From: Acidimicrobiales bacterium
Lineage (GTDB): Bacteria; Actinomycetota; Acidimicrobiia; Acidimicrobiales; Bin134
Length of the DNA: 64,000 nt
Assembly (NCBI GenBank): GCA_965116535.1
Contig: OZ220703.1
Coordinates: forward strand, 1,153,545-1,217,544
Direction: 5' to 3'
Numbering within the stretch: position 1 is the stretch's first letter; each line of letters opens with the position of its first letter. The notes under the pieces were generated by a model. That model saw only the letters and a list, made by a program, of their open reading frames with translations. It searched no databases and was not told the origin of the DNA. This document shows, in pieces, positions 10,463 to 55,281 of this stretch. The translations under genes and the position numbers were made by a program.

Positions 10463-11302
10463 TTAGGGGGCGGGTATAAAGGCAGCGGCAATAACCCCAG
10501 GTCCGGCGTGGGTGCCCACGACGGGGCCGATGAGTGTCACCGACAAGGGGCTGCGGGCGGGACCGTCGCCCAGGCTGGCTGTGAATGCGTCGATGTCGTC
10601 AGCCGCCCCGTGGGCCAAGGCCAATTGCTCCAATTCTCCGGCTTCGGCCACTTTCTTGCTCAGCCAAGTGCGGGCTTTACCTCGGGTCCGCTGCTTGCCT
10701 GCTTCCTCTACGACGCCCGAAGTTAGATCCAAACAGGGTATGATCGACAGGGCGCTGCCCAAAAGGGCCTGCGCGGTGCCGATGCGCCCGCCCTTTTTGA
10801 GATTGTCCAGGGTGTCCAGCACCGCAAAGATGAAGACCCGGTCTTTCAGCTGGGCCAGTTGGGCTTCGATCTCATCAGCACTGTGACCGGCTTCGGCAGC
10901 CTCGGCCGCGGCCTTCACCATGAGGCCCAGGCCTACCGACACCTTGCCGGAGTCCACCACCCGGACGTCGACCTCGCCCTCCAATGCACGAGACGCATTC
11001 TGAGCCGATTCCCCGGTGGCCGACAGGGCGAACGACAAGTTGACGCATACCACCGCGTCGGCCCCCCCGGCGGCCAGTTGCCGGAACACAGCCTCAAACG
11101 CACCCGGTGCCGGGGCGGCGGTGGACGGCAGTTCGCCGCTGGCTGCCATCTTCTCGTAAAAGCCATCAGCCGATAGATCTTGGCCGTCGGTGAACTCCTC
11201 GTCGCCAAATCGGATGGTAAGAGGAACCACGGTGATCTGGTAGCGCTCGATATCGGCGGCGCTGAGATCGCAGGAGCTGTCGGTCACGATGCGAACTGCC
11301 AT
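10463..11302 (-). CDS. DegV-family fatty-acid-binding protein
   Basis: 279 aa. The N-terminus MAVRIVTDSSCDLSAADIERYQITVVPLTIRFGDEEF is the typical DegV start. Confidence 0.8.
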   Translation of the reverse strand: MAVRIVTDSSCDLSAADIERYQITVVPLTIRFGDEEFTDGQDLSADGFYEKMAASGELPSTAAPAPGAFEAVFRQLAAGGADAVVCVNLSFALSATGESAQNASRALEGEVDVRVVDSGKVSVGLGLMVKAAAEAAEAGHSADEIEAQLAQLKDRVFIFAVLDTLDNLKKGGRIGTAQALLGSALSIIPCLDLTSGVVEEAGKQRTRGKARTWLSKKVAEAGELEQLALAHGAADDIDAFTASLGDGPARSPLSVTLIGPVVGTHAGPGVIAAAFIPAP

Positions 11303-11311
11303 GGCCAGACC

Positions 11312-13402
11312 CTACTCCGCAGGCTGAGTTTTGGGGCGATGACGAGACCACCAGTTGCGGGCCCACCACACCATCAGGATGGCCAGTGCGGCGGCCGCGA
11401 TTCCCACTCCGGCGCCCGACAAAGAGGTTGCCCGCACCGTCAGCTGGGATTCGCCCAGAGCCAGCAGGCCGGTGGGCGAGTTGACGCTGATCTCCAACAC
11501 GGCGTCGCCTGAAGTCTTGGCTCGCACCTCTACTTGCACTTGGTTGACCCCGGGGGACAGTCGCCAGAGCAAAGAATCCCCGTCGGGGAAGTCCAGCTTG
11601 TCGCTATTGAGATCCAAACGGACGATGACATCGTGGCTGAGGCTGTTGCGAATGAGCATCGGAATGCTGCCCGATCGGCTGGTCAGGGTGATCCGCTGCT
11701 GGCTCGGGGGCTCGATGGCGGCCACAGTGTCCCGCACGGTCTGGGCGACTACGGCCAAATAGGAGTCTCGCTGGGTCTCGGTGAGGCCATAGGTCCCCGA
11801 CAGGAGCAGAGCCCGTTCCAAGGTTTCGATCAACTGTCGCTCGGGGGTGCCCACGGTGGCGATCGGGTCCACCATGTTCTGGTACGACCGGGCGATTTGC
11901 TGGCCGACGGTCAAGGCAGCCTTGTAGTCCTCCCCGAAACCATTTTCCTCGGCGGGGCGCACCTCCCGGAGGGTGTCCGGCTCGAGCCTCTCGACAATCG
12001 TGGCGGGATCGACGGACGAAAGGATGGGGCTGGCGCTGATCTCGTCCAGCAGCACCCCCAGCCCAGTGGAATCCGGCAGTGAAGCCATGGGCGGTGCCAG
12101 CACGATCCCCCGGAGTCTCTGGGGGTCTTCAAACCAGCGCACGGCCAGATCAGCCAGCACCAGGTAAGGAGCGGTTTCGGGGCTGTTGGATCTGGTGAAG
12201 TGGGCGGTAACGCTGCTGTCGACAGCAACCGCTGGAGCCGGTTGGCCGAATGCGGGAAGCAGGAACGACGTCTTGGCCAACGTGCCGACCAGTTCATCAG
12301 CCGGATTGAGCAGAGCATCGGGAACCAGCACCAGCTCCACCTGTTCTCGCTGAAGCCGCTCGAGCAACTCGGGGGAGGCCGAAGTGGTCAGCAACATGAT
12401 GGTGCGATCGGGTTGCGAACCGAGGTATTCGTCCAGCACCGCAGCCCCCGCCTCGATCTGCCAGCCGATTTGAAGGCTTAGGTCTTGGTCGATCCATGCA
12501 TCGCTGTCCAAGGGGACGTAGGTGTTGCTCGCGATCTGGCGGTTGATCGTGGCCTGTTGGAGTCGGGTAAGCAGCTGGGCGTCCTCAGGCCGATCGCTGA
12601 TGGCCAGGGCGTCGATCAGATGAGGGTCGAGCGAGACCGTGGCCAGAATCTGGGGGCGAACCCGGGGGTCCAGCACGTCGGCCAGCGCTTGCAAGCTCTG
12701 GCCGGTGGGTCCCAGATCCACGTCGCCTTCTTGGTTTACCGCCGGGGGCCCGCTCACCGACAACACGGTGCTCACCAGCAGCGGCGGTTGGTTGGAGGCC
12801 GCCGGGGGGATGCGAACCAGGAAGGTATGGAGGGTGTCGAGTCGAATGCCATCGGAGTCCCGAAGAACGAGGCTTACCGGATACACCCCTTCGGCGGGCA
12901 GCGGGAGAAACAACTGATCCGAAGTTCCTGCCTCAAGAGCCGGGTCGGCGGTGGTGGTGATTTGCAGCGATACAACCCCGTCGGCATCGCGCTCGGGGAG
13001 GGCAAGTCGAGAAAACCGGTGCAGAACTGGTCCGGTTGACAGCCCGGCCAATCGATCCAAGAAAGCGGAGCGAGACCGGATGGGTCCCCCGATGTTGAAG
13101 TCAACGGTGGAATCGACGGTGGCGCCAATGATCCGAAAGGAAATCTGGAAGACGTCCTCTTCGGCGATCCACATGCTCTGGCTGACCAACTCGATGGAGG
13201 GTGCATATGTCTCGGAGACATCGTTGTTGTTCTGGCCGGTCGCGGCCGGGGTCGCGATGGCAGTCGCGGCCGAAAAGACAAAAGCCGCCACCAGCGCTAG
13301 CCGCTTGCTTCCCCGGCGGGGTCTCTGGCAACTATGGCCCACTGATCTCCAACTCCAGAACTTGCAGGCCGGGAGGAATCGGTTCGAAACCCAGTCGCTC
13401 AT
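11312..13402 (-). CDS. Large secreted, C-terminally membrane-anchored hypothetical protein (possibly DUF6049-like)
   Basis: 696-aa ORF with an N-terminal signal-like segment (RLALVAAFVFSAATAIATPAATG) and a C-terminal TM plus basic tail (GIAAAALAILMVWWARNWWSRHR). The family guess rests only on size, topology and proximity to cca, as in mycobacterial loci. The start is uncertain and overlaps the GNAT stop. Confidence 0.55.
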   Translation of the reverse strand: MSDWVSNRFLPACKFWSWRSVGHSCQRPRRGSKRLALVAAFVFSAATAIATPAATGQNNNDVSETYAPSIELVSQSMWIAEEDVFQISFRIIGATVDSTVDFNIGGPIRSRSAFLDRLAGLSTGPVLHRFSRLALPERDADGVVSLQITTTADPALEAGTSDQLFLPLPAEGVYPVSLVLRDSDGIRLDTLHTFLVRIPPAASNQPPLLVSTVLSVSGPPAVNQEGDVDLGPTGQSLQALADVLDPRVRPQILATVSLDPHLIDALAISDRPEDAQLLTRLQQATINRQIASNTYVPLDSDAWIDQDLSLQIGWQIEAGAAVLDEYLGSQPDRTIMLLTTSASPELLERLQREQVELVLVPDALLNPADELVGTLAKTSFLLPAFGQPAPAVAVDSSVTAHFTRSNSPETAPYLVLADLAVRWFEDPQRLRGIVLAPPMASLPDSTGLGVLLDEISASPILSSVDPATIVERLEPDTLREVRPAEENGFGEDYKAALTVGQQIARSYQNMVDPIATVGTPERQLIETLERALLLSGTYGLTETQRDSYLAVVAQTVRDTVAAIEPPSQQRITLTSRSGSIPMLIRNSLSHDVIVRLDLNSDKLDFPDGDSLLWRLSPGVNQVQVEVRAKTSGDAVLEISVNSPTGLLALGESQLTVRATSLSGAGVGIAAAALAILMVWWARNWWSRHRPKTQPAE

Positions 13403-14072
13403 AGAGGCGCAGGGCAGCAGTGTTGTGCTGAGGTGTGTTGACCCAAGCTTGGGTGGCGCCCCAACGGGCCATCCACATCAATCCGTCGATCACTAGGGCG
13501 GTGCCGGCCCCTTGGCCTTGCTGGCTGGGTGAGATTGCCAATCGCTGGAGATAGCCGGTCGGGCCGCTGCGCCCGGATATGGCGTAACCGGCTAGCGCGT
13601 TGTCAGAGTTTTGACGGGCCACACGAAACCGTCGGAAGGGTGTTGCTCGGAGCGCTTCGTGCAATCCGACCAGGTCGAGCTGCCAGATGGGCTCGAAGGC
13701 GGCATGGTCCACGGCCAACACTGAGGTGTGATCGCGGCGGCGGGCCTTTCGGAGGGCAATGTCTCCATTTCGTTCCGGTAGCTCGGGTTGAGTCGGGCGG
13801 GATAGCAAGGCCAACTGTTGGGCGGACTGGAATCCGGCTCGCAGGAACGGCTGGGCCTCGACATGCGAAAGGGCCGAAGTTCGGATTCGGAGATAGCCCT
13901 GGGCAGCCGCAGATTCGATCGAGTTGGTGACAGCGGCATCTGAGACTGCCGAACCGGAAGTCAGCAGGATGAGCAGGCCGGTTCCCGTTTCGCTGGCCCA
14001 GGGTCTGAGCCGCAGACGGTCGTGACCCAGTCGGAGCGTCACAGACTTCTGCCCCGACCGTCGGCCCAACAT
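13332..14072 (-). CDS. GNAT-family N-acetyltransferase
   Basis: The C-terminal 246 aa of track ORF 13332..14906 carry a GNAT core (GYLQRLAISPSQQGQGAGTALVIDGLMWMARWG, NTAALRLYERLGFE). The upstream 278 aa are a shadow frame antisense to the deacetylase gene. Start set at ATG 14072. Confidence 0.7.
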   Translation of the reverse strand: MLGRRSGQKSVTLRLGHDRLRLRPWASETGTGLLILLTSGSAVSDAAVTNSIESAAAQGYLRIRTSALSHVEAQPFLRAGFQSAQQLALLSRPTQPELPERNGDIALRKARRRDHTSVLAVDHAAFEPIWQLDLVGLHEALRATPFRRFRVARQNSDNALAGYAISGRSGPTGYLQRLAISPSQQGQGAGTALVIDGLMWMARWGATQAWVNTPQHNTAALRLYERLGFEPIPPGLQVLELEISGP

Positions 14073-42849: not shown

Positions 42850-44088
42850 GTGGAAGGAGAACGACCCCGCTACTTTCCCGATGAGGGAGATGTCCCGGAT
42901 TCACAGCCATTCACTCCAGGGTTTGGTAGTACGCCTCCATGTTTGGTGGGGAGAGATGAGCTGATCCGAGACGTATGTGCCCTGCTGGCAGGCGATCCCG
43001 CTAGCGAGGGAGGGGCCAATGTACTGCTGGCGCCGCGGGGTTTGGGCAAGACGGTTGTGTTGAACGAGATCGAGGACGCTGCCCAAAAGGAGCGGGGCTG
43101 GCTGGTTCTGTCAGTCTCAGGCACCGACGGCGACCCGATTGCTGAAACGCATAAGGCAGTTCTTCGAGCGCACGACCTGTTCGCGCAAGCTCACGGTGAA
43201 CCCGCCAAACGACAGGTGTCTGGAATGAACCTGGGAGCAGGAGGCTTGTCGGCCGGAGTCTCATTCGAGGAAGAGGCCGATCTGAGGCGAACGGGATATG
43301 GAGACGACCTTCGACGCGACCTTGGGGAGCTTGCGGGCGCAGCTGCCCGATTCGGTGTCCGGGTACTGCTCACCATGGATGAGATGCATGCGATACCGCT
43401 GGCTAAAGCCCGACAGCTTGGCTCGTACATTCAGCACATCGCCAAGCGGGAACGGCAGGCACTGGTGTTCGTGGGGGCGGCACTGCCGTATATCACCGAA
43501 ACGCTACTGGCCGACCGGAAGTCGACATTCTTGCAGCGCCTTGCTGTCCACAGAGTCGACCCCCTGCCTGAACCCGAGACAAGACGCGGACTTCGAGAGC
43601 CGATTGAGACGCACGGGGGCCTCATCGGCGAAGATGCTCTGGACATTGCCACCTCAGCTGTGGCTGGCCATCCGTACATGCTTCAGTTGGTGGGAGACAG
43701 GATGTGGCGCGCGGCAGGCGGTGCGGGCAACCCAATCTCTCTCAACCATGCCAAAAAGGCAGTGGCCGAGGCTAGAGAGTCGCTGGAAGATCACTTGTTT
43801 GCCCCGACATGGGAGAGCCTGTCGGACACCGACAAGCGTTTCCTGGCTGCCTTGGCAGTTCTTGCCAAAAAAGGCAATTCGCCTCGGGTCGCTGCAATAT
43901 GCGAAGAGGCTGGAATAGGTGAATCCAGCGCCAGTGCCTATCGCAGACGGCTGTTGCTGTCGGGAATGGTCAGCCCCGGCGGGCGAGGCCGGCTGAAGCT
44001 GGCCCACCCGTCTATCGGTCCCTGGCTGCGCCGATCAATCGCAACAGGTTCAGTGCGCGTCCCCGAATCTCCCTTACCTGGGATCTGA
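42850..44088 (+). CDS. AAA+ (ORC/Cdc6- or archaeal-ATPase-like) ATP-binding protein with C-terminal wHTH
   Basis: 412 aa. PFTPGFG...LVGRDELI lead-in, Walker A APRGLGKT, Walker B LLTMDEMH. C-terminal DKRFLAALAVL...RVAAICEEAGIGESSASAYRRRLLLSGMV resembles a winged helix. Confidence 0.7.
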   Translation: MEGERPRYFPDEGDVPDSQPFTPGFGSTPPCLVGRDELIRDVCALLAGDPASEGGANVLLAPRGLGKTVVLNEIEDAAQKERGWLVLSVSGTDGDPIAETHKAVLRAHDLFAQAHGEPAKRQVSGMNLGAGGLSAGVSFEEEADLRRTGYGDDLRRDLGELAGAAARFGVRVLLTMDEMHAIPLAKARQLGSYIQHIAKRERQALVFVGAALPYITETLLADRKSTFLQRLAVHRVDPLPEPETRRGLREPIETHGGLIGEDALDIATSAVAGHPYMLQLVGDRMWRAAGGAGNPISLNHAKKAVAEARESLEDHLFAPTWESLSDTDKRFLAALAVLAKKGNSPRVAAICEEAGIGESSASAYRRRLLLSGMVSPGGRGRLKLAHPSIGPWLRRSIATGSVRVPESPLPGI

Positions 44089-44200
44089 CATGTCAGCCGG
44101 TCAGGTATTCCGGACAACATCCCGCAACATTCAAACTCCCAGAACCCGACGTACCAGCTACGACGCGTAGAGCCGAAAAGGCAGGCCCCGATCACAATCT

Positions 44201-44231
44201 CGTTGCGCTGCACAATACGCAACGTGTTTTC
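44201..44231 (+). terminator. Weak hairpin plus T-run downstream of the ATPase gene
   Basis: CGTTGCG-ctgcacaata-CGCAACG followed by TGTTTTC. The stem is only 7 bp. Confidence 0.25.
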
Positions 44232-45029
44232 GACGGCCAGCGCTCTACCAGGGCGATGGCCGGATGCAACCAGGCAGAAACTGTCACTGACCCCGGATAG
44301 GGTTCCCCGACATGGACATTTTCTACATAGCAAAGGCAGTCATGACTGGCATCGCGGTAGGCATAGGGGCCATGGGTTGGTGGCTCCTAGTTCCCGTCCT
44401 GTCCTTTCTCGGCATAGCGATTCTCAGAAACAGGTGACCCCAGTCGGCGGGAAATTCCCTCCCCAATTCGGTCTACAGCATCCTATATTCACATATAGAG
44501 AAGACCCCCCGGAGCTTCGTGCTCAGCACTCCACTCCAAGATCCTAGTGCCCCAAGCGTCAAGATCCCGAGTAAGTCACCTTGCCTCTGCAAGGCCCTCC
44601 CGTCTGCTGCCAGCTCGGGGCGCACATTTTCTAGCAGGGCCGTGAATCGGATTTCAAGCGCCTCTGATACAGTGCGCCCGATGTCAAGAGAACTGAATAT
44701 CACGCGGGCCAAAGCACATCTCGTGACTGCTGTTTACCGGGGTGTTGGCAACAACGTGGTAGCAGCAAGAACAGTGCTGAGCGACGCCAAAGTCAGACCT
44801 CCCGGCGACGCGGAGCAATGGCACGATTACGCCATGGCCAGGGCTGTCCAGCAGCACCAGGACTGGGAAGACAGAGAACTGGGTTTCAGAGCAGACCGAA
44901 TTTGACTTCTCGTAACTTGGCTCAGTCAGTAGCGGGGCCGCGCCACTCTCCCATATAAGTCCCACTGATTTAGTTCCAAAATGGCCAATACAAGGGGGCC
45001 AATTATCTGTAAGTAGAGAGACGCTTGAC

Positions 45030-46463
45030 CTAGGCGGTAATATTTCCAGTATAGGTAGACCAAGGTACATCCTCCACTCCATTGGTAGTCCGATTGTGGT
45101 ATTTTCCACTAAAGTTAAACATATTCAATAGAAGAAGCTCCAAATACCATAGCGCGGTACAGTAGGCCCCGTAAGTCACCTCAAACTCAGGTGGGTCCTC
45201 TTTTGGATGGACAATTCTATTTCTAACCCAGCTGACCATTTGCTGACACCCATTTACGTCAGATAGCTGTGTTTCTTTATCTTCCATATCCTTATACTCT
45301 GTAGGGAAATCTAAAGGAACTCTTGCGGTTGTCAAGATTTCTTCAATCTTGTCACCAGCAGAGACATCTTTGAACGATCTATTGCTCATTTTGCCAGTCG
45401 TTACAAGAGCCAGCCACGCCAGTGTCTCAAGAGCCGAATGAGCGACAACTAGACCGCTGTCTATGTACCCATTATTTGCATGCGAATATCTACCTATCAG
45501 AGTAGATATGGTATCTTTCATGTCTGGTTTAGTCCATTCAGAATGGAATCCATCAAACAGTTCAGATAAAGATTTAAATTGAAAATTGTCGTACCATGTC
45601 GGTCTATATATTGCTGGGTCAGTGTGAGTGAGGTCGTAATATATGATTGTCTTGGTGCCGTCATGAGATGTAGCAATTGGCAAGATTAATCCGACTCTCT
45701 GAGACCGAACAAATGTAAAAAACCAATATAAACAGTCCAACATGTCCTTGACTTCGTTGTAATCAAAGCTGGCACAATCCTTACGTCTGATCAGACCCAA
45801 GTGCGTGACTGTATACGAGCCGTCTTCCTTGGCGTGTTCCCATTCGATGTCATAGTTTTTTCTGTTGTCTATATATATTTCCCATCCATCTTGGGTATGG
45901 AGTTCAATACGCTTGGCGCAAATTTCGTTTCCTGTGTAGGTAATATTCGTATCTCCAATACTCAAAGGAAGATTCACCAGACTGAATTGAATCTCAATCA
46001 AGTCTTCAAGGTCTCTGAATTTTGCTGCGTTTGAATAAACTACTTCGAATTCAAATCTGTAGGGATTTGAAGTCGCAAAGAGAACTCGCTTGCTTTGAAT
46101 GACGTCTATGGGAAACCTATAGTCAGGTAACTGAAGTGTAAAGTCGTATGAGGAATTGATCTCAATCTGATATGTCTTGCTGTCATGAGTCGTGAATATT
46201 GCTTTTCGAAATGGCTTTGGTTTTAGATGAAGCTGTATCTTAACTTCACCCTCAATCTTAATCTCGTGTTTTGCTGACGAGTCTTGACCGCCAGAACTTA
46301 TGGCGCTGGCGACAAGAGTGGCGCGCCCTTCGTAGAGAATCGTGGGTTCGGTTGGAGTGGCAAATGGAAGAATCGGTTCATTTGCGCGGGGGAGATTATC
46401 GATTGCATCCACAGCAAATAGAATATCAATGAGACGGAGCGGAGTAACAAGCAGAGGATTCAA
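45030..46463 (-). CDS. HEPN-domain protein, ApeA-like (candidate abortive-infection RNase)
   Basis: The strongly AT-rich part of track ORF 45030..47216. It has a beta-rich N-terminal region and a helical C-terminus carrying WVRNRIVHP, an Rx4H HEPN motif of the RNxxxH type. There is no in-frame ATG in the first half. The candidate starts are TTG 46463 or GTG 46412, and a TAA lies just upstream in the pre-IS sequence. Confidence 0.6.
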   Translation of the reverse strand: MNPLLVTPLRLIDILFAVDAIDNLPRANEPILPFATPTEPTILYEGRATLVASAISSGGQDSSAKHEIKIEGEVKIQLHLKPKPFRKAIFTTHDSKTYQIEINSSYDFTLQLPDYRFPIDVIQSKRVLFATSNPYRFEFEVVYSNAAKFRDLEDLIEIQFSLVNLPLSIGDTNITYTGNEICAKRIELHTQDGWEIYIDNRKNYDIEWEHAKEDGSYTVTHLGLIRRKDCASFDYNEVKDMLDCLYWFFTFVRSQRVGLILPIATSHDGTKTIIYYDLTHTDPAIYRPTWYDNFQFKSLSELFDGFHSEWTKPDMKDTISTLIGRYSHANNGYIDSGLVVAHSALETLAWLALVTTGKMSNRSFKDVSAGDKIEEILTTARVPLDFPTEYKDMEDKETQLSDVNGCQQMVSWVRNRIVHPKEDPPEFEVTYGAYCTALWYLELLLLNMFNFSGKYHNRTTNGVEDVPWSTYTGNITA

Positions 46464-46486
46464 TCTTGTGAGTGGGGTAGGGTGCG

Positions 46487-47446
46487 CTAGTTGTAGGACC
46501 CATAGAGGTTGTGTACGCGTGATGCGGGTGTGCCGTTGATGGCGGTGTGGTGGCGGTGGAGATTGTAGTGGTGGACCCAGGTTTGGAGTCGGCGCCGGCG
46601 GTCGGGCTCTGATCTGAACTTGTAGGCGTATAGGAACTCGTCTGCGAGGGTGCGGTTGAAGCGCTCTGCTTTGCCGTTGGTCTGGGGCCGGTACGGCCTG
46701 GTGAAGGTGTGGGCTATGGCGTGCCGGGCGAGCTGGGCGGCGAATTTGCGGGATCTGAAGTTGGCCCCGTTGTCGGAGATGACTTCGTCGACGGCGATCC
46801 CGATGGAGCGGAACCAGCAGCGGGCCCGCTCGAAGAACCCGCACAGGGTTTCGGCGGTCTCGTCGTCGAGGGCCTCGACGTAGGCCAGGCGGCTGTGGTC
46901 GTCTACGGCGACGTGCAGGTAGCTGTAGCCCACCCTGGGACGGCGCTTGGTCCCCCGAGAAGCCGTGTCGGCGCGCCCGTGGGCCCTCCACCCGCCGCCG
47001 GGCGGGATCTTGCCCGCCTTCTTGACGTCCAAATGGACCAGATCGCCCGGCTCGGGCCGCTCGTAGCGGCGTATCACCCTCCCGGTGGGCCGGTCCAGCC
47101 AGCTGAGCCGGTTCAGCCCGTTTCGCACCAGGATCCGGTGCACCGTGGACGCCGGCACCCCCAACCGGGCCGCGATGCGCGCCGGCCCCAGCCGGGAGGC
47201 GCGCCGCAACCGGCACACCCGCTCCTCAGTCTTGGAGTCGGTGCGGCGCGGCGACCGGTGCGGCCTCGACGACCGGTCCACCAAACCAGCCTCGCCGTGG
47301 GCCTGGAAGCGGTGCCACCACTTCGCCACCGTGGACCGCGACAAACCCATCTGCGCGGCCACATGGGCCTGGGGCATCCCGCCCTGGATCCGCTGGACAA
47401 CCAACAACCTCCCCAAAGGGGTCAGGCGTGCATTAGCGTGCGACAT
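46487..47446 (-). CDS. IS481-family transposase (HTH plus DDE/rve)
   Basis: MSHANARLTPLGRLLVVQRI... (HTH), HLDVKK, VAVDDHSRLAY, SDNGANFRS, RPYRPQTNGKAERFNRTL. The GGGAGG RBS lies 5 nt before the ATG. The stop TAG lies in the target duplication. Confidence 0.9.
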   Translation of the reverse strand: MSHANARLTPLGRLLVVQRIQGGMPQAHVAAQMGLSRSTVAKWWHRFQAHGEAGLVDRSSRPHRSPRRTDSKTEERVCRLRRASRLGPARIAARLGVPASTVHRILVRNGLNRLSWLDRPTGRVIRRYERPEPGDLVHLDVKKAGKIPPGGGWRAHGRADTASRGTKRRPRVGYSYLHVAVDDHSRLAYVEALDDETAETLCGFFERARCWFRSIGIAVDEVISDNGANFRSRKFAAQLARHAIAHTFTRPYRPQTNGKAERFNRTLADEFLYAYKFRSEPDRRRRLQTWVHHYNLHRHHTAINGTPASRVHNLYGSYN

Positions 47447-47554
47447 CGAGCCTCCCTTGCCTCGTGCGGTAGTTCGCAACCACCACACTGGCACCGGAGG
47501 CTCACCTCATAGAGGAACTACCCGCCCGAGCTAACAACCTCTATGGACAGAACA
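46492..47554 (-). mobile_element. IS481-family insertion sequence, copy 1 (1063 bp)
   Basis: Identical to copy 2. Imperfect terminal IRs TGTTCTGTCCATAGAGGTTGT and TGTAGGACCCATAGAGGTTGT. Flanked by the 6-bp direct repeat GCTAGT at 46486-46491 and 47555-47560. Confidence 0.9.
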
Positions 47555-47561
47555 GCTAGTT

Positions 47562-47581
47562 CTTAGGCCCTGTTGACAAAC
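47562..47581 (-). repeat. 20-bp motif, copy 1 (inverted orientation)
   Basis: The plus strand reads CTTAGGCCCTGTTGACAAAC, the reverse complement of GTTTGTCAACAGGGCCTAAG. It abuts the IS copy 1 target duplication. Confidence 0.8.
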
Positions 47582-47584
47582 AGG

Positions 47585-47863
47585 TCAGGACGCATCTTTG
47601 ATGCTCGATCTGTTCAGTATCCATTCCGTAGCGGTCTCTACAGCATCGTCAATGGACTTGTATCCGGCCATCTGATGGATGATGACATCGAATTGCTGTC
47701 CACGGGGCTTGCCCCGCTGCTCGGTGAAGTTGTGGACCTTGAACCCGTACCAAGTCTTCCCCATGTTGTGCCCCATATCGCATATCCATATGGCGATGCC
47801 GTAAGTGATCCCGCCATGCTCGATGTGCCTGTAGTCCAAGAATTGGTCAAACAACTGTCCCAC
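47585..47863 (-). CDS. Hypothetical protein (92 aa)
   Basis: GTG start. GC-rich third codon positions on the minus strand, compared with roughly even on the overlapping plus ORF 47573..47974. No family recognised. Confidence 0.5.
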   Translation of the reverse strand: MGQLFDQFLDYRHIEHGGITYGIAIWICDMGHNMGKTWYGFKVHNFTEQRGKPRGQQFDVIIHQMAGYKSIDDAVETATEWILNRSSIKDAS

Positions 47864-47900
47864 TACGTCTCCAAACTCGTAACAGAGCCTATAGCGCTAA

Positions 47901-48287
47901 CTAAATGGCCTGTTCTGGCTGGTCAGAACGCCGCTCTCGTGCCGCCGCGAGTGCCTCTTCACGCTCGCGCCTGAAACGGTTTCTGCGATCTCGAAGCAGT
48001 CCATTGAGATCGAATCCGTCGATTTGAGCACCGACCTTCAGGTTCAGCCACCACACCTGGCGTATCAGGATTTCCAACAGGCATTCGGTACACCGATTCC
48101 CGCCGTCCGTGTCAGGGCAGTCGTGGAGGTGCTGGCCACCGCCGCGGTCATAGTCCCCGCGGCTGCGTGACTCTATGTTGAAGCGCAGTAACTCTTCGAA
48201 TTCTTCATCGCAATCTTCGTAGTTCATTGCCCCTGATTTTACCGCCTGTCTGCGACAACGGAGGACCGTAACCCTGTGGTATTGCAC
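47901..48287 (-). CDS. Hypothetical protein (108-128 aa; HxC...CxxC cluster)
   Basis: Coding-like. The start is GTG 48287 (AGGAGG sits immediately upstream, but the spacing is very short) or ATG 48227 (MNYEDCDEEFEELL). Contains HLHDCPDTDGGNRCTEC and a basic C-terminal helix. Confidence 0.5.
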   Translation of the reverse strand: MQYHRVTVLRCRRQAVKSGAMNYEDCDEEFEELLRFNIESRSRGDYDRGGGQHLHDCPDTDGGNRCTECLLEILIRQVWWLNLKVGAQIDGFDLNGLLRDRRNRFRREREEALAAARERRSDQPEQAI

Positions 48288-48457
48288 TCCTCCTGTCAGA
48301 TGTCTCTTGCAATAGAAGTGCCATCAGACGACCTATGAGGTTCAAAGCCCCTGGACCTCTGCTGCAAGAGAAACCCCAGGTAGGAGTGTCACGGAGGTCC
48401 AGGGACCGAGGTCTATGTCTCTAAAGGCAGCCTGATGGCGTGCCTGTGATTACTAGC

Positions 48458-48485
48458 TTGTAATTTGTTCCCCATAGGGTAGAAT
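48458..48485 (+). promoter_or_regulatory. Putative sigma-70-type promoter for the 73-aa gene
   Basis: TTGTAA (48458-48463), a 16-nt spacer, then TAGAAT (48480-48485). Confidence 0.35.
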
Positions 48486-48553
48486 CAGCGCGGGCCCCGG
48501 CTGTCAGGACCGGGGCCCGCTGTACACGGCACCCAATAGTAAGGAGTGATGCC

Positions 48554-48775
48554 ATGCAAAAATCCGATGTGACGACGCGCCCTCCGGAGCACGGGTTCAG
48601 CGACCCGAGCATCCCGTACTTCGAGGACATAGTCGAGGAGTTCCTGAAAGACGCACTCAGCCATCACAGAGTGCGCGAAAACCATCCGAGGCAGACCAGG
48701 GGCTTGGACAGGGAGCACTTGGACGTGTTCATCTGGCTCGGAGCACCTGACTACCTGAGAGGACGCGGCCTGTAG
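48554..48775 (+). CDS. Hypothetical protein (73 aa)
   Basis: ATG preceded by AAGGAG (48541-48546) at 7-nt spacing. Acidic and helical sequence (IPYFEDIVEEFLKDALSHH). No family recognised. Confidence 0.55.
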   Translation: MQKSDVTTRPPEHGFSDPSIPYFEDIVEEFLKDALSHHRVRENHPRQTRGLDREHLDVFIWLGAPDYLRGRGL

Positions 48776-48780
48776 ACAGA

Positions 48781-48800
48781 GGTTTGTCAACAGGCCCTAG
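48781..48800 (+). repeat. 20-bp motif, copy 2
   Basis: GGTTTGTCAACAGGCCCTAG, 5 nt after the stop of the 73-aa gene. Followed by the related GGATTGTTGACCAG. Confidence 0.8.
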
Positions 48801-48990
48801 GGATTGTTGACCAGTTGGCGACGGATACCCGCTAACGCTGCTGCGTCAGGTCGCAAGAGGCCGACCCCGGCGAGCGCTTCGTCGAGGCCAGGTGGAGGTA
48901 GAAGCCTGGCGCGTGAACTGACTTGCCGGTTTCGTAGCGGAAGTGCATCGCAGCCTGGGTCTTGTGGGCGACTTGTCCTTACGAGAACTC
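48801..48990 (-). pseudogene. Degraded fragment A of a DUF2461-family paralogue
   Basis: The minus strand, read across three frames, gives RKDKSP / KTQAAMHFRYETGKSVHAPGFYLHLA / LDEALAGVGLLRPDAAALAGIRRQLVNN. This parallels SKDKSPYKTQAAVHFRHEAGKSAHAPGFYLHLAPDEVFAGVGLWRPDSAALAGIRQQIVDD in the intact gene at 54226-54915. Confidence 0.55.
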
Positions 48991-49009
48991 GGAGGTTGAT
49001 ATGGGCCGG

Positions 49010-49297
49010 TTAGAGCGCCACATCCAAGTCCATGTCGCCGATCATGGCCTCGAGCACTTGGCGGAATAGGTCGCGCTGTGACCAGCGGCAGAAACGTTGA
49101 CAGACCGAGTTTCACTTGCCATAGAGCTCGGGCAGTCCAAGCGAAGGGGCTCCGGTGCGGGCCATCCACAAAATGACCTCGACTGCCGTGCGGCGGTCTG
49201 ATGTGTAGGGGCGTCCGTGTTAGCCCGATTGGGCAGGGAGACGGGCGCTGATCTGTTCCTATTGTTCATCAGTAAGCTTCGTGCGGGACGTTTGCCC
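49010..49297 (-). pseudogene. IS5-family (DUF4096-type orfA) transposase remnant
   Basis: One minus-strand frame reads KLTDEQ*EQISARLPAQSG*HGRPYTSDRRTAVEVILWMARTGAPSLGLPELYGK*NSVCQRFCRWSQRDLFRQVLEAM. This is the N-terminal pattern of IS5/IS427-group transposases, with three in-frame stops. Confidence 0.6.
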
Positions 49298-49624
49298 CTC
49301 CTAGCGGATGTGCCCTTGTCTAGGTGAGGGACATCGATCTGATGTCCGAAACCATCATGAGCACGCTCGAAACTAGAAGTGGCGGATGCCCCATAAAATG
49401 CCTGGTTCCCGGTCTGCTCGGACACCGGGGACCAGGGCTAAGACTCAGATTCATCCAAGTCTGGACACCCTAGCCATAGCAGGTCCGCCACATCGCTGCT
49501 ACCGTTAAGCATGGCCTGCACTCCATTTTGGAGGAAGGTTCAGGGTTGCCGAGGCGGGAGGCCGGAAAGGCCCAAGGGCCGAGTTTCCTCCCGCCTCGGC
49601 CCCGCTATTTTAGGAGCAGCCCCC

Positions 49625-49716
49625 TGTGGACCGTAAGGAGGACAAGGGGGATTCCCTGTGCATTTGTGGATAATTTCCTGTGGAAAACCCCCTATCGACA
49701 AGCGGAGTTTGCCACA
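49625..49716. promoter_or_regulatory. Cluster of DnaA-box-like 9-mers
   Basis: TGTGGACCG (49625-49633), TGTGGATAA (49665-49673, a perfect complement of TTATCCACA), TGTGGAAAA (49679-49687, which fits TTWTNCACA) and TTTGCCACA (49708-49716). Confidence 0.3.
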
Positions 49717-49736
49717 GGTTTGTCAACAGCCCTTAG
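49717..49736 (+). repeat. 20-bp motif, copy 3
   Basis: GGTTTGTCAACAGCCCTTAG. The related GGATTGTCAACCGG lies 22 nt downstream. Confidence 0.75.
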
Positions 49737-49850
49737 CCCGATGACCTGGATTGTCAACCGGTCGCGCGAGAACGGCTCTGATGGGTCTCTGGAACCCCAC
49801 GGTGGAATGCCGAGCGCACCTCTGGTCCGCTTCATCGACCCCTAGTACAG
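49737..49850 (-). pseudogene. Degraded fragment B of a DUF2461-family paralogue
   Basis: The minus-strand frame GVDEADQRCARHSTVGFQRPIRAVLARPVDNPGHRAKG aligns by eye to PDEVFAGVGLWRPDSAALAGIRQQIVDDTQGWYRAV of the intact gene. Confidence 0.4.
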
Positions 49851-49933
49851 GCCTGCGGCCTATTTGTCACTCACGTCTGTTAGCGTGCGGCTACACGCCG
49901 TGAACAACAGCCTTACACGCTGTGTAGGAGAGG

Positions 49934-51961
49934 ATGGTAGGAATGGTCGATGCCCAGGAACCCGTAAGGAGTGCAGTTAACCGCACACTGAGCGAGGTAA
50001 GGGAAGCGCTACACAGAAGGGGCAGATTGTCTTCGCGCGACCAAGCCCTAGACGAAGTCGCGAAATTGATGTTCGCTGAAGTTATGGGGGCTATTCGCGG
50101 CAACGACGGCATTTCCCGGAAGGCAGTGCCAGGAGGTCCGCCTGCCGTAGCTCTGCGCCACTTCGTTCACGGTTCCTTTACCACGTATCTCCCTGATTCG
50201 TTGGCCCACGAGATGCAGGCTTCAGACTTCGATCTGACGCTGCGCGACAGCGAGGACGACCTCGCAGACGAGCTGATTGACATTTTTGACCGGTTTGGGC
50301 CGGCGATGGCGATCAAGGAGATGGGAAGGGCATTCGATGTTGATCTGCTGAACGAGGTCTTCGGCAAATTCATCGCCGATTCCTTCGTCAGCGAGAAGGA
50401 ATTAGGCCAATACCTCACGCCTCCCGAGGTTGTTGATCTGATGGTTGACGTCGCAATCGCTGAGCTCGGTGATTTCGGCCACCAGCTGAGAGATCCAGAC
50501 GCTTGCACTGACGTGGGCTTGATACTCGACCCTTCATGTGGCGTTGCGTCGTTTCTGTCGGCAATGGTCCGGAGACTTGACAATGAGGTCGCCGAGGGCC
50601 ACAGCGAAGCGGCTACCCGCCGGTGGATGTCAAATATGGTGAACCGGGTTCTCGTTGGTGTGGACAAGAGTGAGCGAATGATCCGGCTTGCGTTAACGAG
50701 TCTGGCGATGTTCGGCCTCCCTGCGGCTAATCTTCACCTCGCTAATGCTCTCGCTCTCGCCGGTCGAAGCGGAGATCTGATGAAAGGGTTTGAGGCAAGA
50801 GCTCGGCTGATCCTCACAAATCCGCCGTTCGGAGCAACGTTCTATGGGAACGATTTGCGAGGCTTCAAAATCGCCAACGGGTGGGCGACACGACCAGCCC
50901 AAGCAGTCGACTCTGAATTGCTCTTCATTGAGAGATACATCGACTGGCTGGCGCCAGGTGGCCATTGCCTGGCGATCGTGCCGGACTCGATTCTGACGAA
51001 CAAAGGCATCTACAGGGACCTTCGTCATGGGCTCGCCGACCTCGTTGAGATTCGAAACGTGATCTCGCTGCCACCCGTCACGTTCGGTGAGGCAGGGACG
51101 AACACAAAGACATCAGTCCTCCACATTCGGCGTATCGCTCCGGGAGACTCGGTTCGCTCACGGACGTATTTCGCAATCTGCGATGACATCGGATTCTCTG
51201 TCGCGACAAGAGGATCGCAGAGGACCAAACAGAGAACCGGCGAGGGTCAACTCCACCAAATTGCTGATGAAGTTGCGAGAGGAGCAGTTGTGAAGACTGG
51301 GCGATACGTCGACGCCGTCCAGTCAGCCGATCGGTGGGATGCAACGTTTCACGCGTCTCTTCCCGAGTGGGTTCGGGCAGGTTTGGCGGCGATCGGTGAT
51401 CGGGCCGTCCGGATCAGCGACGTCTCGCAGCTCATCGATACTCGCTCCAACCCTGGCCACTGGGACGTTGATTCATTCACCTACATTGAGATTTCTGATA
51501 TCGATTCAGCGACGCACCGGATTCGAGCGAAAGCAGTGGCAACCAGCGAAGCGCCAAGTCGTGCGCGCAAGCTCACCCAGTCGGGCGACGTACTCGTCTC
51601 AACCGTGCGTCCCGAACGTCGAACAATCGGCGTGGTTGATCAGCAGCTCGACGGGTCAATATGTACGACGGGGCTAGCCGTCCTGCGGCCACAAGGGATT
51701 CATTCGCTTCTGCTTGCGCGCATTCTGAGTTCGGACTTCGTGACTGCGCAGATCCTCCGCAACAACATCGGGATCGCCTATCCAGCCATCGACGAGGCGA
51801 GCCTGCTTGGGATTGTTCTGCCGCTGAAGTCCGATGACTGGGAGTCGCTTGGGCAGTATTCCGAAGAAGTCATGGCAGCCGAAGCGTCATTAGCAGATCT
51901 TAGGAGTCAGCTTGATACAGTGGTAGCGAAGGCGATGGAACGTTGGGAAACAGACCTCTAG
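49934..51961 (+). CDS. N6-adenine DNA methyltransferase fused to an HsdS-like target-recognition domain (M-S fusion)
   Basis: Motif I ILDPSCGVASFL and motif IV LILTNPPFG. The C-terminal ~230 aa resemble a single type I S-subunit TRD plus a conserved helix (VLVSTVRPERR, ICTTGLAVLRP, GIAYPAIDEASLLGIVLPL). The start may be the second ATG at 49943. Confidence 0.85.
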   Translation: MVGMVDAQEPVRSAVNRTLSEVREALHRRGRLSSRDQALDEVAKLMFAEVMGAIRGNDGISRKAVPGGPPAVALRHFVHGSFTTYLPDSLAHEMQASDFDLTLRDSEDDLADELIDIFDRFGPAMAIKEMGRAFDVDLLNEVFGKFIADSFVSEKELGQYLTPPEVVDLMVDVAIAELGDFGHQLRDPDACTDVGLILDPSCGVASFLSAMVRRLDNEVAEGHSEAATRRWMSNMVNRVLVGVDKSERMIRLALTSLAMFGLPAANLHLANALALAGRSGDLMKGFEARARLILTNPPFGATFYGNDLRGFKIANGWATRPAQAVDSELLFIERYIDWLAPGGHCLAIVPDSILTNKGIYRDLRHGLADLVEIRNVISLPPVTFGEAGTNTKTSVLHIRRIAPGDSVRSRTYFAICDDIGFSVATRGSQRTKQRTGEGQLHQIADEVARGAVVKTGRYVDAVQSADRWDATFHASLPEWVRAGLAAIGDRAVRISDVSQLIDTRSNPGHWDVDSFTYIEISDIDSATHRIRAKAVATSEAPSRARKLTQSGDVLVSTVRPERRTIGVVDQQLDGSICTTGLAVLRPQGIHSLLLARILSSDFVTAQILRNNIGIAYPAIDEASLLGIVLPLKSDDWESLGQYSEEVMAAEASLADLRSQLDTVVAKAMERWETDL

Positions 51962-52860
51962 GACAGGTCCCAAACATCCTGAATCGAGTCGAACCAGACC
52001 CCGGCCCCGATCTCGCACAGCGGATTCTGATTGACATGCTCTGGGTATTCGGATGAGCGAGGCAAGCCGTGGGATTGCTCATCGTCAGGAACTGAGCGCG
52101 CAAATCCGAAGTCATTGATATTACCCGTTCGAAGGAACAGACTCACAGCGAATATGTCCTGTGTCTCGAACTTGCAGCTGCTGGTCGGATAACGCTTTCC
52201 CAGGCTGTGAATTAGCCGCGCGTATCGGGTATTGGTTCCCCAAAGCGACTTGACTTCAATTTTACGAACGTCGGTCCCGCTGCGTACTTCAAAATCGAAG
52301 TCGTGGAATTGGCCGATATGCTTTGCGACGTCTTCCGGCATCCTCGTCACCGTATAGCCCTCTGACTCTAACCGCAGCGCCAATGTGCATTCGGTTAGGC
52401 CACTAAGGAACTTCGCGGCGGTACCATATTGATCGACTTCCAGGTAGTCATCGGTAGTCAGGTTCTTGACCGCTGCCTCCAGGTCACGTTTAGGGCCGCC
52501 GGTGTATATCTCGCCCTCAGCCTTTCCTGTGTCCGCATCAAGCGACAGGATGCGCCCCTTCGCCAGCTCCTGCCAGACGCCGCCGTCGACGTATGAGCGA
52601 GGGACGAATTTCCCGGTCATCCCCGGTACGACATAGCGACGGTTATCGGGGGTCAGGGCGATCTTGAAGCTCGCTCGGTAGTGGTTCTGTCCTGGATGCT
52701 TAAAGATGTGAGAATCCATGTCGTCGATCGCTATCAACGTGGGTCTCAGTACCTGAAGCATGGCTTCAGCTAACACTCCCCCGTATCTCTGTGAGATCGA
52801 GGCAAGAGTCTCTTCGGCACTCGGCACAGCTCCTCCATCATATAGTTGGCGCCCAGCCAC
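51958..52860 (-). CDS. Putative type II restriction endonuclease (PD-(D/E)xK)
   Basis: Convergent with the methyltransferase, overlapping it by 4 nt. FHDFDFEVRSGTDVRKIEVKSLWG fits D...ExK. GTG start at 52860; an internal ATG is the alternative. Confidence 0.55.
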   Translation of the reverse strand: MAGRQLYDGGAVPSAEETLASISQRYGGVLAEAMLQVLRPTLIAIDDMDSHIFKHPGQNHYRASFKIALTPDNRRYVVPGMTGKFVPRSYVDGGVWQELAKGRILSLDADTGKAEGEIYTGGPKRDLEAAVKNLTTDDYLEVDQYGTAAKFLSGLTECTLALRLESEGYTVTRMPEDVAKHIGQFHDFDFEVRSGTDVRKIEVKSLWGTNTRYARLIHSLGKRYPTSSCKFETQDIFAVSLFLRTGNINDFGFARSVPDDEQSHGLPRSSEYPEHVNQNPLCEIGAGVWFDSIQDVWDLS

Positions 52861-52951
52861 GTCCCGAGTTTCCCAGACAGACTGCTCATCGCGACGTAAG
52901 TCCGAAGATGGCCGGTCTACATTTCCGATGGAGGGGACTGGCGCAACTAGG

Positions 52952-54014
52952 TGTTCTGTCCATAGAGGTTGTTAGCTCGGGCGGGTAGTTCCTCTATGAG
53001 GTGAGCCTCCGGTGCCAGTGTGGTGGTTGCGAACTACCGCACGAGGCAAGGGAGGCTCGATGTCGCACGCTAATGCACGCCTGACCCCTTTGGGGAGGTT
53101 GTTGGTTGTCCAGCGGATCCAGGGCGGGATGCCCCAGGCCCATGTGGCCGCGCAGATGGGTTTGTCGCGGTCCACGGTGGCGAAGTGGTGGCACCGCTTC
53201 CAGGCCCACGGCGAGGCTGGTTTGGTGGACCGGTCGTCGAGGCCGCACCGGTCGCCGCGCCGCACCGACTCCAAGACTGAGGAGCGGGTGTGCCGGTTGC
53301 GGCGCGCCTCCCGGCTGGGGCCGGCGCGCATCGCGGCCCGGTTGGGGGTGCCGGCGTCCACGGTGCACCGGATCCTGGTGCGAAACGGGCTGAACCGGCT
53401 CAGCTGGCTGGACCGGCCCACCGGGAGGGTGATACGCCGCTACGAGCGGCCCGAGCCGGGCGATCTGGTCCATTTGGACGTCAAGAAGGCGGGCAAGATC
53501 CCGCCCGGCGGCGGGTGGAGGGCCCACGGGCGCGCCGACACGGCTTCTCGGGGGACCAAGCGCCGTCCCAGGGTGGGCTACAGCTACCTGCACGTCGCCG
53601 TAGACGACCACAGCCGCCTGGCCTACGTCGAGGCCCTCGACGACGAGACCGCCGAAACCCTGTGCGGGTTCTTCGAGCGGGCCCGCTGCTGGTTCCGCTC
53701 CATCGGGATCGCCGTCGACGAAGTCATCTCCGACAACGGGGCCAACTTCAGATCCCGCAAATTCGCCGCCCAGCTCGCCCGGCACGCCATAGCCCACACC
53801 TTCACCAGGCCGTACCGGCCCCAGACCAACGGCAAAGCAGAGCGCTTCAACCGCACCCTCGCAGACGAGTTCCTATACGCCTACAAGTTCAGATCAGAGC
53901 CCGACCGCCGGCGCCGACTCCAAACCTGGGTCCACCACTACAATCTCCACCGCCACCACACCGCCATCAACGGCACACCCGCATCACGCGTACACAACCT
54001 CTATGGGTCCTACA
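52952..54014 (+). mobile_element. IS481-family insertion sequence, copy 2 (1063 bp)
   Basis: Sequence identical to copy 1, in inverted orientation. Flanked by the 6-bp direct repeat ACTAGG at 52946-52951 and 54015-54020. Confidence 0.9.
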
Positions 54015-54019
54015 ACTAG
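53060..54019 (+). CDS. IS481-family transposase (HTH plus DDE/rve)
   Basis: The protein is identical to the copy 1 transposase. ATG 53060 follows a GGGAGG RBS. Confidence 0.9.
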   Translation: MSHANARLTPLGRLLVVQRIQGGMPQAHVAAQMGLSRSTVAKWWHRFQAHGEAGLVDRSSRPHRSPRRTDSKTEERVCRLRRASRLGPARIAARLGVPASTVHRILVRNGLNRLSWLDRPTGRVIRRYERPEPGDLVHLDVKKAGKIPPGGGWRAHGRADTASRGTKRRPRVGYSYLHVAVDDHSRLAYVEALDDETAETLCGFFERARCWFRSIGIAVDEVISDNGANFRSRKFAAQLARHAIAHTFTRPYRPQTNGKAERFNRTLADEFLYAYKFRSEPDRRRRLQTWVHHYNLHRHHTAINGTPASRVHNLYGSYN

Positions 54020-54225
54020 GAGTTGCGACCTCGATCTTGTGAAGCGGCCGGAGGTATGAGGCGTTTACTTCAGGACCAGTCTGTCACTCCTCACCAAGAA
54101 AGACTTCACCACGATGCTGGCCGCGCTTGTGGACTGCCTGTCAGCCCATCTGGAGTGCATTGCAGAAGTTCGAGGGAGGGCTTCGTCCGACCGCAGGAGC
54201 GGTGTAGACAGCGTTGGATGATGGA

Positions 54226-54915
54226 TCAGTACGGGAGGCCGACGGCTGTCGTCAGGAATTCCGTATATGGCGAGGCTTTGCGGCAGGCGTCGGCGAACGA
54301 TTCGATGAAGCCCTTGGCTGTGACCTCTTCTTGGGAGAACGGAACCGTGGCGACGTGATCTTTGCGCTTGAGGTCTTCGATGTTCGGGTGATCGGGATCA
54401 AATCCCTTTGGGGGTCGCTTCAGCGAGTCTCCGGTCAGCTCGAACGCTTCGGCGAACCCGGGGGCTTGAACAGCGCGGTACCAGCCTTGGGTATCGTCGA
54501 CGATCTGCTGACGGATTCCTGCCAACGCAGCTGAGTCCGGTCGCCACAGGCCGACTCCGGCGAACACCTCGTCGGGGGCCAGATGGAGGTAGAAGCCCGG
54601 TGCGTGGGCCGACTTGCCGGCCTCGTGGCGGAAGTGGACCGCGGCTTGGGTCTTGTAGGGGGACTTGTCCTTGGAGAAGCGGACGTCGCGATAGATCCGG
54701 AACATGGACCCGCCGTTGGCTCGGGCATCGGCAACGAAGTGCTTGCTGATCGAGTGCAGGTACGGCTCGAAGTCTTCGATGAAGTCCAGCAGAGGCTGCT
54801 TGACATGCCGCTCGTATCGCTCCTTGTGCTCTGCGAACCACCCTCGGTTGTTATTTGCCTGCAACTCAACGAGGAAGTCGAACAACTCGTTGTCGAAGTG
54901 GGATTGCATTGCCAC
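54226..54915 (-). CDS. DUF2461 (TIGR02453) family protein
   Basis: 229 aa. FDFLVELQANNNRGWFAEHKERYE and FRIYRDVRFSKDKSPYKT are the family hallmarks. Confidence 0.75.
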   Translation of the reverse strand: MAMQSHFDNELFDFLVELQANNNRGWFAEHKERYERHVKQPLLDFIEDFEPYLHSISKHFVADARANGGSMFRIYRDVRFSKDKSPYKTQAAVHFRHEAGKSAHAPGFYLHLAPDEVFAGVGLWRPDSAALAGIRQQIVDDTQGWYRAVQAPGFAEAFELTGDSLKRPPKGFDPDHPNIEDLKRKDHVATVPFSQEEVTAKGFIESFADACRKASPYTEFLTTAVGLPY

Positions 54916-54950
54916 GTTTCTAGACTTACCGAGGTTCCCCGTGCATGTTT

Positions 54951-55281
54951 TCAGGGGCGAACTTCGACGAATCCGGCGGCGGTAAAGTCGCCGTCGAATG
55001 CCAGGGCCTCAGTTATCCGCTCTCGTCGCATGATCTCGAAGCTGACCGCATCCACATAGGAGTAGGGCCGCTCATCGTGTCGGCGAACGTCACTGGAAGT
55101 AGATGACCGCGTCGATGTCGTCGATGGGGTCGATGTCAACAGAACCGATCAGGGCGTCGACTGGGTCAGGACACTCTGTGGAGGCATTGTTGAGATCGTT
55201 GTTCGCATGTGGCTGTATACGCCGCACAAAGGCAAGGTACACCACACTGTTGAGAGCAGAGCTAGACATTGGCGGTTTCAT
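54951..55281 (-). pseudogene. PIN-domain (VapC-like) toxin gene, frameshifted
   Basis: The C-terminal frame SYVDAVSFEIMRRERITEALAFDGDFTAAGF is PIN-like. The N-terminal part lies in another frame (ORF 55090..55281), with the frames joining near 55090. There is no room for an antitoxin upstream. Confidence 0.45.

Follow-up and report, generated by a model that had tools for sequence, protein, structure and literature searches.

What does an AT-rich gene encode that lies in a GC-rich chromosome directly downstream of an insertion sequence, and is it still a working gene? We addressed this question for a 64,000-nucleotide stretch of DNA from an Acidimicrobiales bacterium (GenBank assembly GCA_965116535.1, contig OZ220703.1, positions 1,153,545 to 1,217,544 of the forward strand), which is referred to here as the window and whose coordinates are used throughout. 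The gene, located on the minus strand at 45030-46412, starts with GTG and has 460 codons before a TAG stop (45030-45032); its identification draws on a family hidden Markov model (HMM), tblastn and an AlphaFold2 (AF2) model. It is a real, intact and recently imported foreign gene and, as judged from its sequence, is a horizontally acquired member of the YopA family, which comprises the Pfam entries PF26308 (YopA_M) and PF27216 (YopA_C), is labelled 'YopA family protein' by PGAP and takes its name from yopA of the Bacillus prophage SPbeta (NP_046623). The reading that we favour, with a probability of roughly 0.6, is that this intact import carries a HEPN domain at its C-terminus and would act, by analogy with known systems, as a single-protein RNase defence toxin that aborts phage infection.

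The foreign origin of the gene is evident from its composition. Its GC (guanine plus cytosine) fraction is 0.422 and the GC fraction at its third codon positions (GC3) is 0.42, and the core genes nearby have GC3 values of 0.82-0.91. When 1380-nt intervals were scanned over the 64 kb, the mean GC was 0.637 (standard deviation 0.042) and the minimum of 0.416 fell at the gene, the lowest value elsewhere, away from the gene locus, being 0.558. An earlier reading of this DNA (the initial annotation) had singled out the frame as the strongest AT-rich outlier of the window, and these values bear it out. It had also described the first half of the frame as lacking an in-frame ATG, with TTG 46463 and GTG 46412 as candidate starts, and this was confirmed for both codons: the first ~220 residues of the frame contain no methionine, and neither start is preceded by an obvious Shine-Dalgarno sequence. 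The GTG fits the family N-terminus better than the TTG, as position 5 of the family profile falls five residues after it; the possible 17-codon N-terminal extension from the TTG (46413-46463, minus strand) is an open frame outside the family profile and is less likely. Because the frame of the gene also stays open across the GC-rich insertion sequence (IS) upstream, the open reading frame (ORF) listing merged the two into a single ORF of 728 amino acids (aa) at 45030-47216. The gene itself is free of frameshifts and internal stops, and its full length together with the retention of every conserved YopA-family residue argues against a decaying fragment; the earlier alternative of a decaying cassette is therefore not supported.

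The assignment to the YopA family was obtained from several searches. A family HMM built from 101 members, with the query left out, gave the window protein a score of 311 bits (E 5e-97), the match extending across positions 5-449 of the 451 in the profile, and a spurious ORF was ruled out by this match. When phage genomes were searched by tblastn, yopA of Bacillus phage SPBc2/SPbeta was recovered (E 1e-24, 28.8% identity over residues 157-470), and among plasmids the matches lay on cyanobacterial, Methylophaga and E. coli plasmids. E. coli copies carry the PGAP label 'YopA family protein'. The nearest relatives from a word-index search (P0001, with 33% identity, and P0002) both carry PF26308 and PF27216 in their precomputed annotation, and the two families were annotated together in 6/6 proteins from the word-index homologue searches. 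An exhaustive profile search of cluster representatives (50% identity) yielded 3510 proteins at E <= 1e-3, of which 1720 also passed E <= 1e-30, and the length of almost all of them is 430-460 aa. The family, which the initial annotation had not recognised, is thus large as well as already named, and it is present in bacteria of several phyla, on plasmids and in one prophage; among 50,697 phage records it was found in SPBc2 only. The conserved family residues N147, T203, H204, S233, F234, W273, E329, R397, N398, H402, L429 and V449-P450-W451 are all present in the window protein. When searched alone, the window protein had no match at E <= 10 in PADLOC, NCBIfam and a Pfam copy that lacks PF26308 and PF27216, neither it nor SPbeta YopA matched PHROGs, and in PDB sequences nothing meaningful was retrieved by the protein itself or by the family profile. 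The gene is, in short, a new and divergent member of a known family.

The architecture of the protein was then derived from a full-length AF2 model built with a 140-sequence alignment, which reached a predicted local distance difference test score (pLDDT) of 91.3 and a predicted template modelling score (pTM) of 0.92. The model is beta-rich at residues ~20-125, alpha/beta in the middle at ~135-260 and all-helical at 282-431, after which a beta-hairpin follows. On the basis of the AF2 model and the alignments, residues 1-275 (45588-46412, minus strand) form the N-terminal and middle region, which is rich in beta strands, contains the near-invariant N147, T203-H204, S233-F234 and W273 and is presumed to be the sensor or regulatory part. 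The T203-H204 dyad of the middle region (45801-45806) is near-invariant in the family alignments, and together with N147, likewise outside the predicted HEPN domain, it may indicate another functional site, for instance a pocket for a ligand. Residues 276-460 (45033-45587, minus strand) form the all-helical C-terminal domain with the beta-hairpin, which is predicted to be HEPN from the AF2 model, Foldseek and HEPN_Apea. This domain carries the Rx4H motif R397-N-R-I-V-H402 (45207-45224, minus strand), the predicted catalytic dyad according to the alignment and the AF2 model. The initial annotation had drawn attention to this motif as WVRNRIVHP, of the RNxxxH type, and it is genuine, as all of 140 homologues have R397 and H402 and at least 90% have N398. 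In the AF2 model helix 389-401 has the motif at its end, the long helix 410-431 comes next, and the Rx4H placement described for ApeA and HepT matches that of the window protein (10.64898/2026.01.26.701840). Besides, E329 of the conserved S-A-L-E motif (45426-45428, minus strand), located in helix 317-337, is at least 90% conserved in the family alignments.

Profile and model comparisons suggest that the C-terminus is probably a HEPN domain distantly related to the Apea type, and HEPN, as proposed initially, remains the best reading of this region. The C-terminal family consensus aligned with positions 43-131 of the 136 in the HEPN_Apea profile, with E 0.0012 and 19.7 bits, which is below the cut-off of 24.4. 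Individually, 12/102 family members matched the same model below its threshold (best E 0.011), and it was the only Pfam family matched by more than two members. In PADLOC only two models were matched at E <= 1 by the 102 members, both of them HEPN-containing and each with one weak match. Modelled alone, the C-terminal domain reached a pLDDT of 94.9, and its best Foldseek matches in the PDB, all at E >= 1, were mostly HEPN proteins: 2hsb (AF_0298), 5yep_C and 7bxo_F (HepT), 4nqf, 3o10 (sacsin), 9bj7 and 9bj5 (AbiV) and 1ufb (TT1696). The target-normalised template modelling score (TM) of 7bxo_F was 0.62 at a root-mean-square deviation of 4.7 Å, and the query-normalised TM of the HEPN matches was 0.36-0.47. 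The HMM searches and the structure prediction that had been suggested initially, when run, therefore agreed with a HEPN C-terminus at a sub-threshold or non-significant level and gave little for the N-terminus: ApeA_NTD1 (PF18862) was matched by only 1/102 members (E 0.04), the N-terminal family consensus had no match in Pfam, ApeA_NTD1 included, and the full-length model had no significant Foldseek match in the PDB and BFVD. Faint matches of the full-length model to sliding clamps and to beta-barrels of phage head-tail adaptors or connectors were not relied upon; the latter cover ~110 aa of the N-terminal beta region (9lbn_J with probability 0.91, and BFVD entries with probability up to 0.94, all non-significant at E > 0.05).

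ApeA, PrrC/RloC, AbiJ and similar proteins offer an analogy from which a mode of action can be proposed. In a single chain of ~450 residues, the beta-rich N-terminal and middle region would pack against the C-terminal helical HEPN domain, and two HEPN domains would dimerise to create a metal-independent RNase site. The RNase would stay latent until the N-terminal and middle region, or a neighbouring restriction-modification (R-M) system, registers a phage infection, and the N-terminal and middle region, which has its own N147/T203-H204 cluster, may either sense the infection cue or keep the nuclease shut. Once activated, the enzyme would cut host or phage RNA, for which the precedent is the cleavage of tRNA anticodon loops, and the cleavage would halt translation and abort the infection.

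We also looked at the neighbourhoods of relatives, for which the counts rest on 11 inspected YopA loci, the window included. Genes of R-M type (methyltransferases, MmeI-type enzymes and ResIII/DEAD helicases) lie beside the YopA gene or within ~3.5 kb of it in 8/11 loci. In a Nitrospirales metagenome-assembled genome (L007, 4828-8996) a 938-aa MmeI-family R-M enzyme precedes it, and the stop of the former overlaps the start of the latter, a layout suggesting that the R-M enzyme and the predicted HEPN protein are coupled in translation. Type I modification (M) and specificity (S) genes adjoin YopA on the E. coli IncY plasmid NZ_CP061756 (L005) and in two gammaproteobacterial loci (L016, L017); the remaining R-M-type genes are a 1152-aa methyltransferase with an SNF2 protein (L004), ResIII/DEAD helicases of 945-1009 aa (L002, L006) and, in the window, an N6_Mtase. 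Of the other three loci, L001 has toxin-antitoxin genes, SPbeta a gene with a RES domain, and L018 one for a Uma2 endonuclease. R-M loci are known to harbour HEPN families (PMC3710099), and the R-M genes beside most YopA loci suggest a suicide-type defence that is linked to R-M as a second line. A small partner gene conserved over the 11 loci was not found. The YopA gene has a lower GC than its flanks in 8/10 loci, which is typical of mobile defence cargo. We also observed that L016, L017 and L005 share a conserved element next to ssb, in which an integrase, an integrase-like gene, a 669-aa gene, a 158-aa gene, YopA, a helix-turn-helix (HTH) gene and the type I M and S genes follow each other, and which continues with the defence-like genes AAA_21, Schlafen-like and DUF262.

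The expression of the window copy has to be considered in the light of the element inserted upstream of it. This is an IS481-family element of 1063 bp (copy A, 46492-47554, minus strand) recognised by the Pfam domains rve, rve_3 and LZ_Tnp_IS481, with its transposase directed toward the gene and with imperfect inverted repeats; its ends are TGT...ACA, and the two terminal repeats agree in 17 of 26 positions. It is bounded by the target-site duplication ACTAGC, present proximal to the gene at 46486-46491, where it also supplies the stop codon of the transposase, and distally at 47555-47560. A DDE transposase with the leucine zipper LZ_Tnp_IS481, ends of TGT/ACA and a 6-bp duplication of the form NCTAGN, from which the transposase gene obtains its stop, are features of the IS481 family, although the element differs from the Bordetella IS481 itself. 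The IS ends 79 nt upstream of GTG 46412 and 28 nt upstream of TTG 46463, and when it was removed in silico an in-frame TAA appeared two codons upstream of the open frame, so that the initial annotation stood both in its account of the co-oriented IS and in its pre-IS reconstruction. Copy B (52952-54014, plus strand), also of 1063 bp, is 100% identical to copy A, lies inverted to it and has the duplication ACTAGG. The complete identity of the copies and the separate 6-bp duplication of each indicate two recent, simple insertions, and a composite transposon formed by the two copies was rejected on the grounds of these matching duplications. Identical copies point, as a side observation, to very recent transposition activity. 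Identical sequence is also present in the assemblies L008 and L009. As the stretch from the transposase stop to the start codon contains no predicted terminator, read-through from the transposase gene is possible, as had been suggested initially; transcription of the YopA gene could now come from this read-through or from the short remaining upstream stretch.

The gene belongs to a strain-variable island of ~10.8 kb (44115-54950) that also contains the two IS copies, an N6-adenine methyltransferase and a 289-aa ORF, and that is flanked by a conserved AAA_16 ATPase gene (42850-44088) and by PIN/RHH toxin-antitoxin remnants (54951-55180). At the same chromosomal spot, related genomes (L011-L015) have only the PIN-RHH pair, and a sister genome (L010) has SNF2, a DUF1156 methyltransferase and DUF499 plus a Schlafen-like ATPase; such variable contents across related genomes identify the spot as a variable defence hotspot. 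The locus itself is a case of ordinary horizontal transfer into this hotspot followed by IS insertion. Megablast of the island against plasmids gave no match. The DNA methyltransferase has 672 aa (49943-51961, plus strand; Pfam N6_Mtase 4e-19, Eco57I 3e-5), and the 289-aa ORF convergent with it (51958-52827, minus strand; from the L008 gene calls) has no Pfam match; judged by their sequences, the two may be a type II R-M pair with an unrecognised nuclease. Upstream of the YopA gene are two co-oriented ORFs without a known family, one of 92 aa (47585-47863, minus strand; called in L008), which before the IS insertion ended 103 nt upstream of the GTG, and one of 108 aa (47901-48227, minus strand). 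Homologues of the 92-aa ORF with 83% and 67% identity are followed by unrelated genes in L019 and L020, and for this reason it is probably not a dedicated partner and was rejected as an antitoxin. Homology with L019 ends at the IS insertion point, which places the junction of the two modules at the IS target site. Since the upstream region has neither tandem repeats nor an Rfam match, a type III toxin-antitoxin system and an RNA antitoxin of the AbiF-like kind were likewise rejected.

Several points weigh against the reading of an abortive-infection RNase. The RNase activity, the RNA target, the trigger and the anti-phage effect are all inferred by analogy, and the searchable literature holds no functional study of SPbeta yopA or of another YopA-family member. 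No HEPN model reaches its curated threshold, no Foldseek match of the C-terminal domain is significant, and none of the PADLOC models of known or candidate defence systems matches the window protein, two isolated weak matches being all that was found among 102 members. In the identical metagenome assembly L008, the gene caller called no gene over the YopA ORF (11239-13638, equal to 44088-46487 of the window). We attribute this miss to a composition so unlike that of the host, and gene callers may systematically overlook foreign genes that are AT-rich where the genome has a high GC; the exact gene product is also absent from a collection of 15 billion proteins. A scan for sigma-70-like promoters on the coding strand between the IS end and the GTG found no site, the IS may have silenced the gene and, as the founding member is encoded by a prophage, a role that serves the phage is possible.

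The state of the upstream region bears on the explanation that the gene is intact yet non-functional, the IS481 insertion having cut its promoter or operon link and silenced a toxic cargo, which would make it a very young pseudogene. The IS, only 79 nt from the start, separates the gene from the two co-oriented upstream ORFs, the remaining stretch is without a sigma-70-like promoter and without an obvious Shine-Dalgarno sequence at either start, and with identical IS copies too little time would have passed for decay to show. We nevertheless consider this explanation unlikely, as the ORF has neither a frameshift nor a stop and keeps all conserved residues, read-through is possible where no terminator is predicted before the start codon, and the 92-aa ORF from which the gene was separated is not a conserved partner of the YopA family. 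Moreover, the promoter scan does not model leaderless or -10-only promoters. High-GC Gram-positive bacteria often use promoters of these kinds, which is relevant here if the host is one. The prophage origin of the founding member leads to another explanation, by which the protein is not an abortive-infection RNase and instead serves mobile elements in another way, for example through prophage superinfection exclusion, counteraction of host R-M or island addiction, its helical domain being a module that binds a ligand or nucleic acid. The position of yopA in an accessory region of SPbeta, beside yopB (HTH), yopC (RES domain) and a superinfection-exclusion gene, agrees with this, as does the place of YopA as the first cargo gene of an integrase-carrying element in gammaproteobacteria; some HEPN families are known to be non-catalytic (PMC3710099), and the near-invariant N147 and T203-H204 of the middle region suggest a second functional site. 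What makes this explanation quite unlikely in our judgement is the invariance of the arginine and the histidine of Rx4H over 140 diverse members, expected of a catalytic HEPN and unusual for an inactive one, along with the rarity of the family in phages, where SPBc2 alone was found and no PHROG matched; carriage by prophages and islands is in itself typical of defence genes.

It was also considered whether the protein is a true but diverged member of the ApeA system, with HEPN_Apea joined to an ApeA N-terminal region, as its architecture had initially been taken to suggest. HEPN_Apea is the best Pfam signal of the family, in the consensus as well as in the 12 individual members, one member matched ApeA_NTD1, and the combination of a beta-strand ApeA-NTD1 (~300 aa, 'mostly beta strands') with an Apea HEPN domain, described by Anantharaman et al. 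in 2013 (PMC3710099), resembles the architecture of the window protein. Yet the gathering score of HEPN_Apea (24.4 bits) was reached by 0/102 members, the window protein lacked any match to it at E <= 10, none of the 102 members matched the PADLOC ApeA models at E <= 1, the N-terminal consensus matched nothing, and the N-terminal part of the window protein is beta-rich where ApeA is predominantly alpha-helical. Besides, the homologues are filed by Pfam under separate families, YopA_M and YopA_C. Membership of the ApeA system is hence highly improbable, and the initial suggestion of it is not supported.

The interest of the locus lies in the family to which it points. The YopA family shows the marks of single-protein HEPN abortive infection, namely an invariant Rx4H, R-M neighbours, carriage on islands and plasmids and, usually, a GC below that of the surroundings. 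Neither PADLOC v2 nor the searchable literature contains it. The family may reasonably be regarded as a candidate single-gene defence system that awaits validation. A bolder proposal, which we hold tentatively and at somewhat less than even odds, is that the family is a widespread single-gene anti-phage system in which a new beta-rich sensor with its own near-invariant N/T-H site would control a distant Apea-like HEPN RNase and often back up neighbouring R-M systems, following the logic of PrrC with an unrelated sensor, and that the window copy is a working and freshly imported example of it. Validation of the family would extend the HEPN defence nucleases by a new sensor architecture and would assign a function to one gene of SPbeta, a model prophage.

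Among known proteins, SPbeta YopA is matched over the full length (438 versus 460 aa) and shares THxG, SALE, RNxxVHP and the C-terminal VPW with the window copy. The latter is distant, its nearest known relative being only 33% identical, and resides in a chromosome of 64% GC as compared with a low-GC phage. DARNA/PD-T7-3 was rejected as a counterpart because its architecture differs, the HEPN domain being N-terminal and the C-terminal domain helical. The resemblance to PrrC/RloC lies in the position of a predicted HEPN RNase gene beside R-M genes in most YopA loci examined; the N-terminal ABC-type ATPase of PrrC/RloC is missing in YopA, in which neither an ATPase by Pfam nor a P-loop signal was found, and the methyltransferase of the window is not of type I and does not adjoin the gene, the distance being ~3.5 kb (~2.5 kb prior to the IS insertion). 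The remaining comparison is with the ApeA defence system, which was reportedly described by Gao et al. in 2020. ApeA is a single-protein HEPN tRNA anticodon nuclease activated by ligand binding away from the active site (10.64898/2026.01.26.701840). According to the 2026 cryo-electron microscopy study, its monomers are predominantly alpha-helical with ~580 aa and consist of a catenin-like N, a PafA-like Mid and a split HEPN domain, they assemble into decameric or dodecameric doughnuts that cut tRNA anticodon loops, and the trigger is 5'-phosphorylated deoxydinucleotides in a pocket between the N and HEPN domains (10.64898/2026.01.26.701840). The decameric doughnut, the tRNA target and the deoxydinucleotide activator are features described for ApeA, and the mostly alpha-helical N and Mid domains of ApeA in ~580 aa differ from the beta-rich N-terminal and middle region of YopA in ~450 aa. 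The two nevertheless have in common a single polypeptide in which a large region without detectable homology precedes a C-terminal HEPN domain, predicted in the case of YopA, with Rx4H (Ec1ApeA, WP_000706972; PF18739), HEPN_Apea is the Pfam model nearest to the YopA C-terminal domain, and HepT is among the closest solved HEPN structures for both. Though membership fails, ApeA is, on these likenesses, the best functional analogy for the YopA protein of the window.

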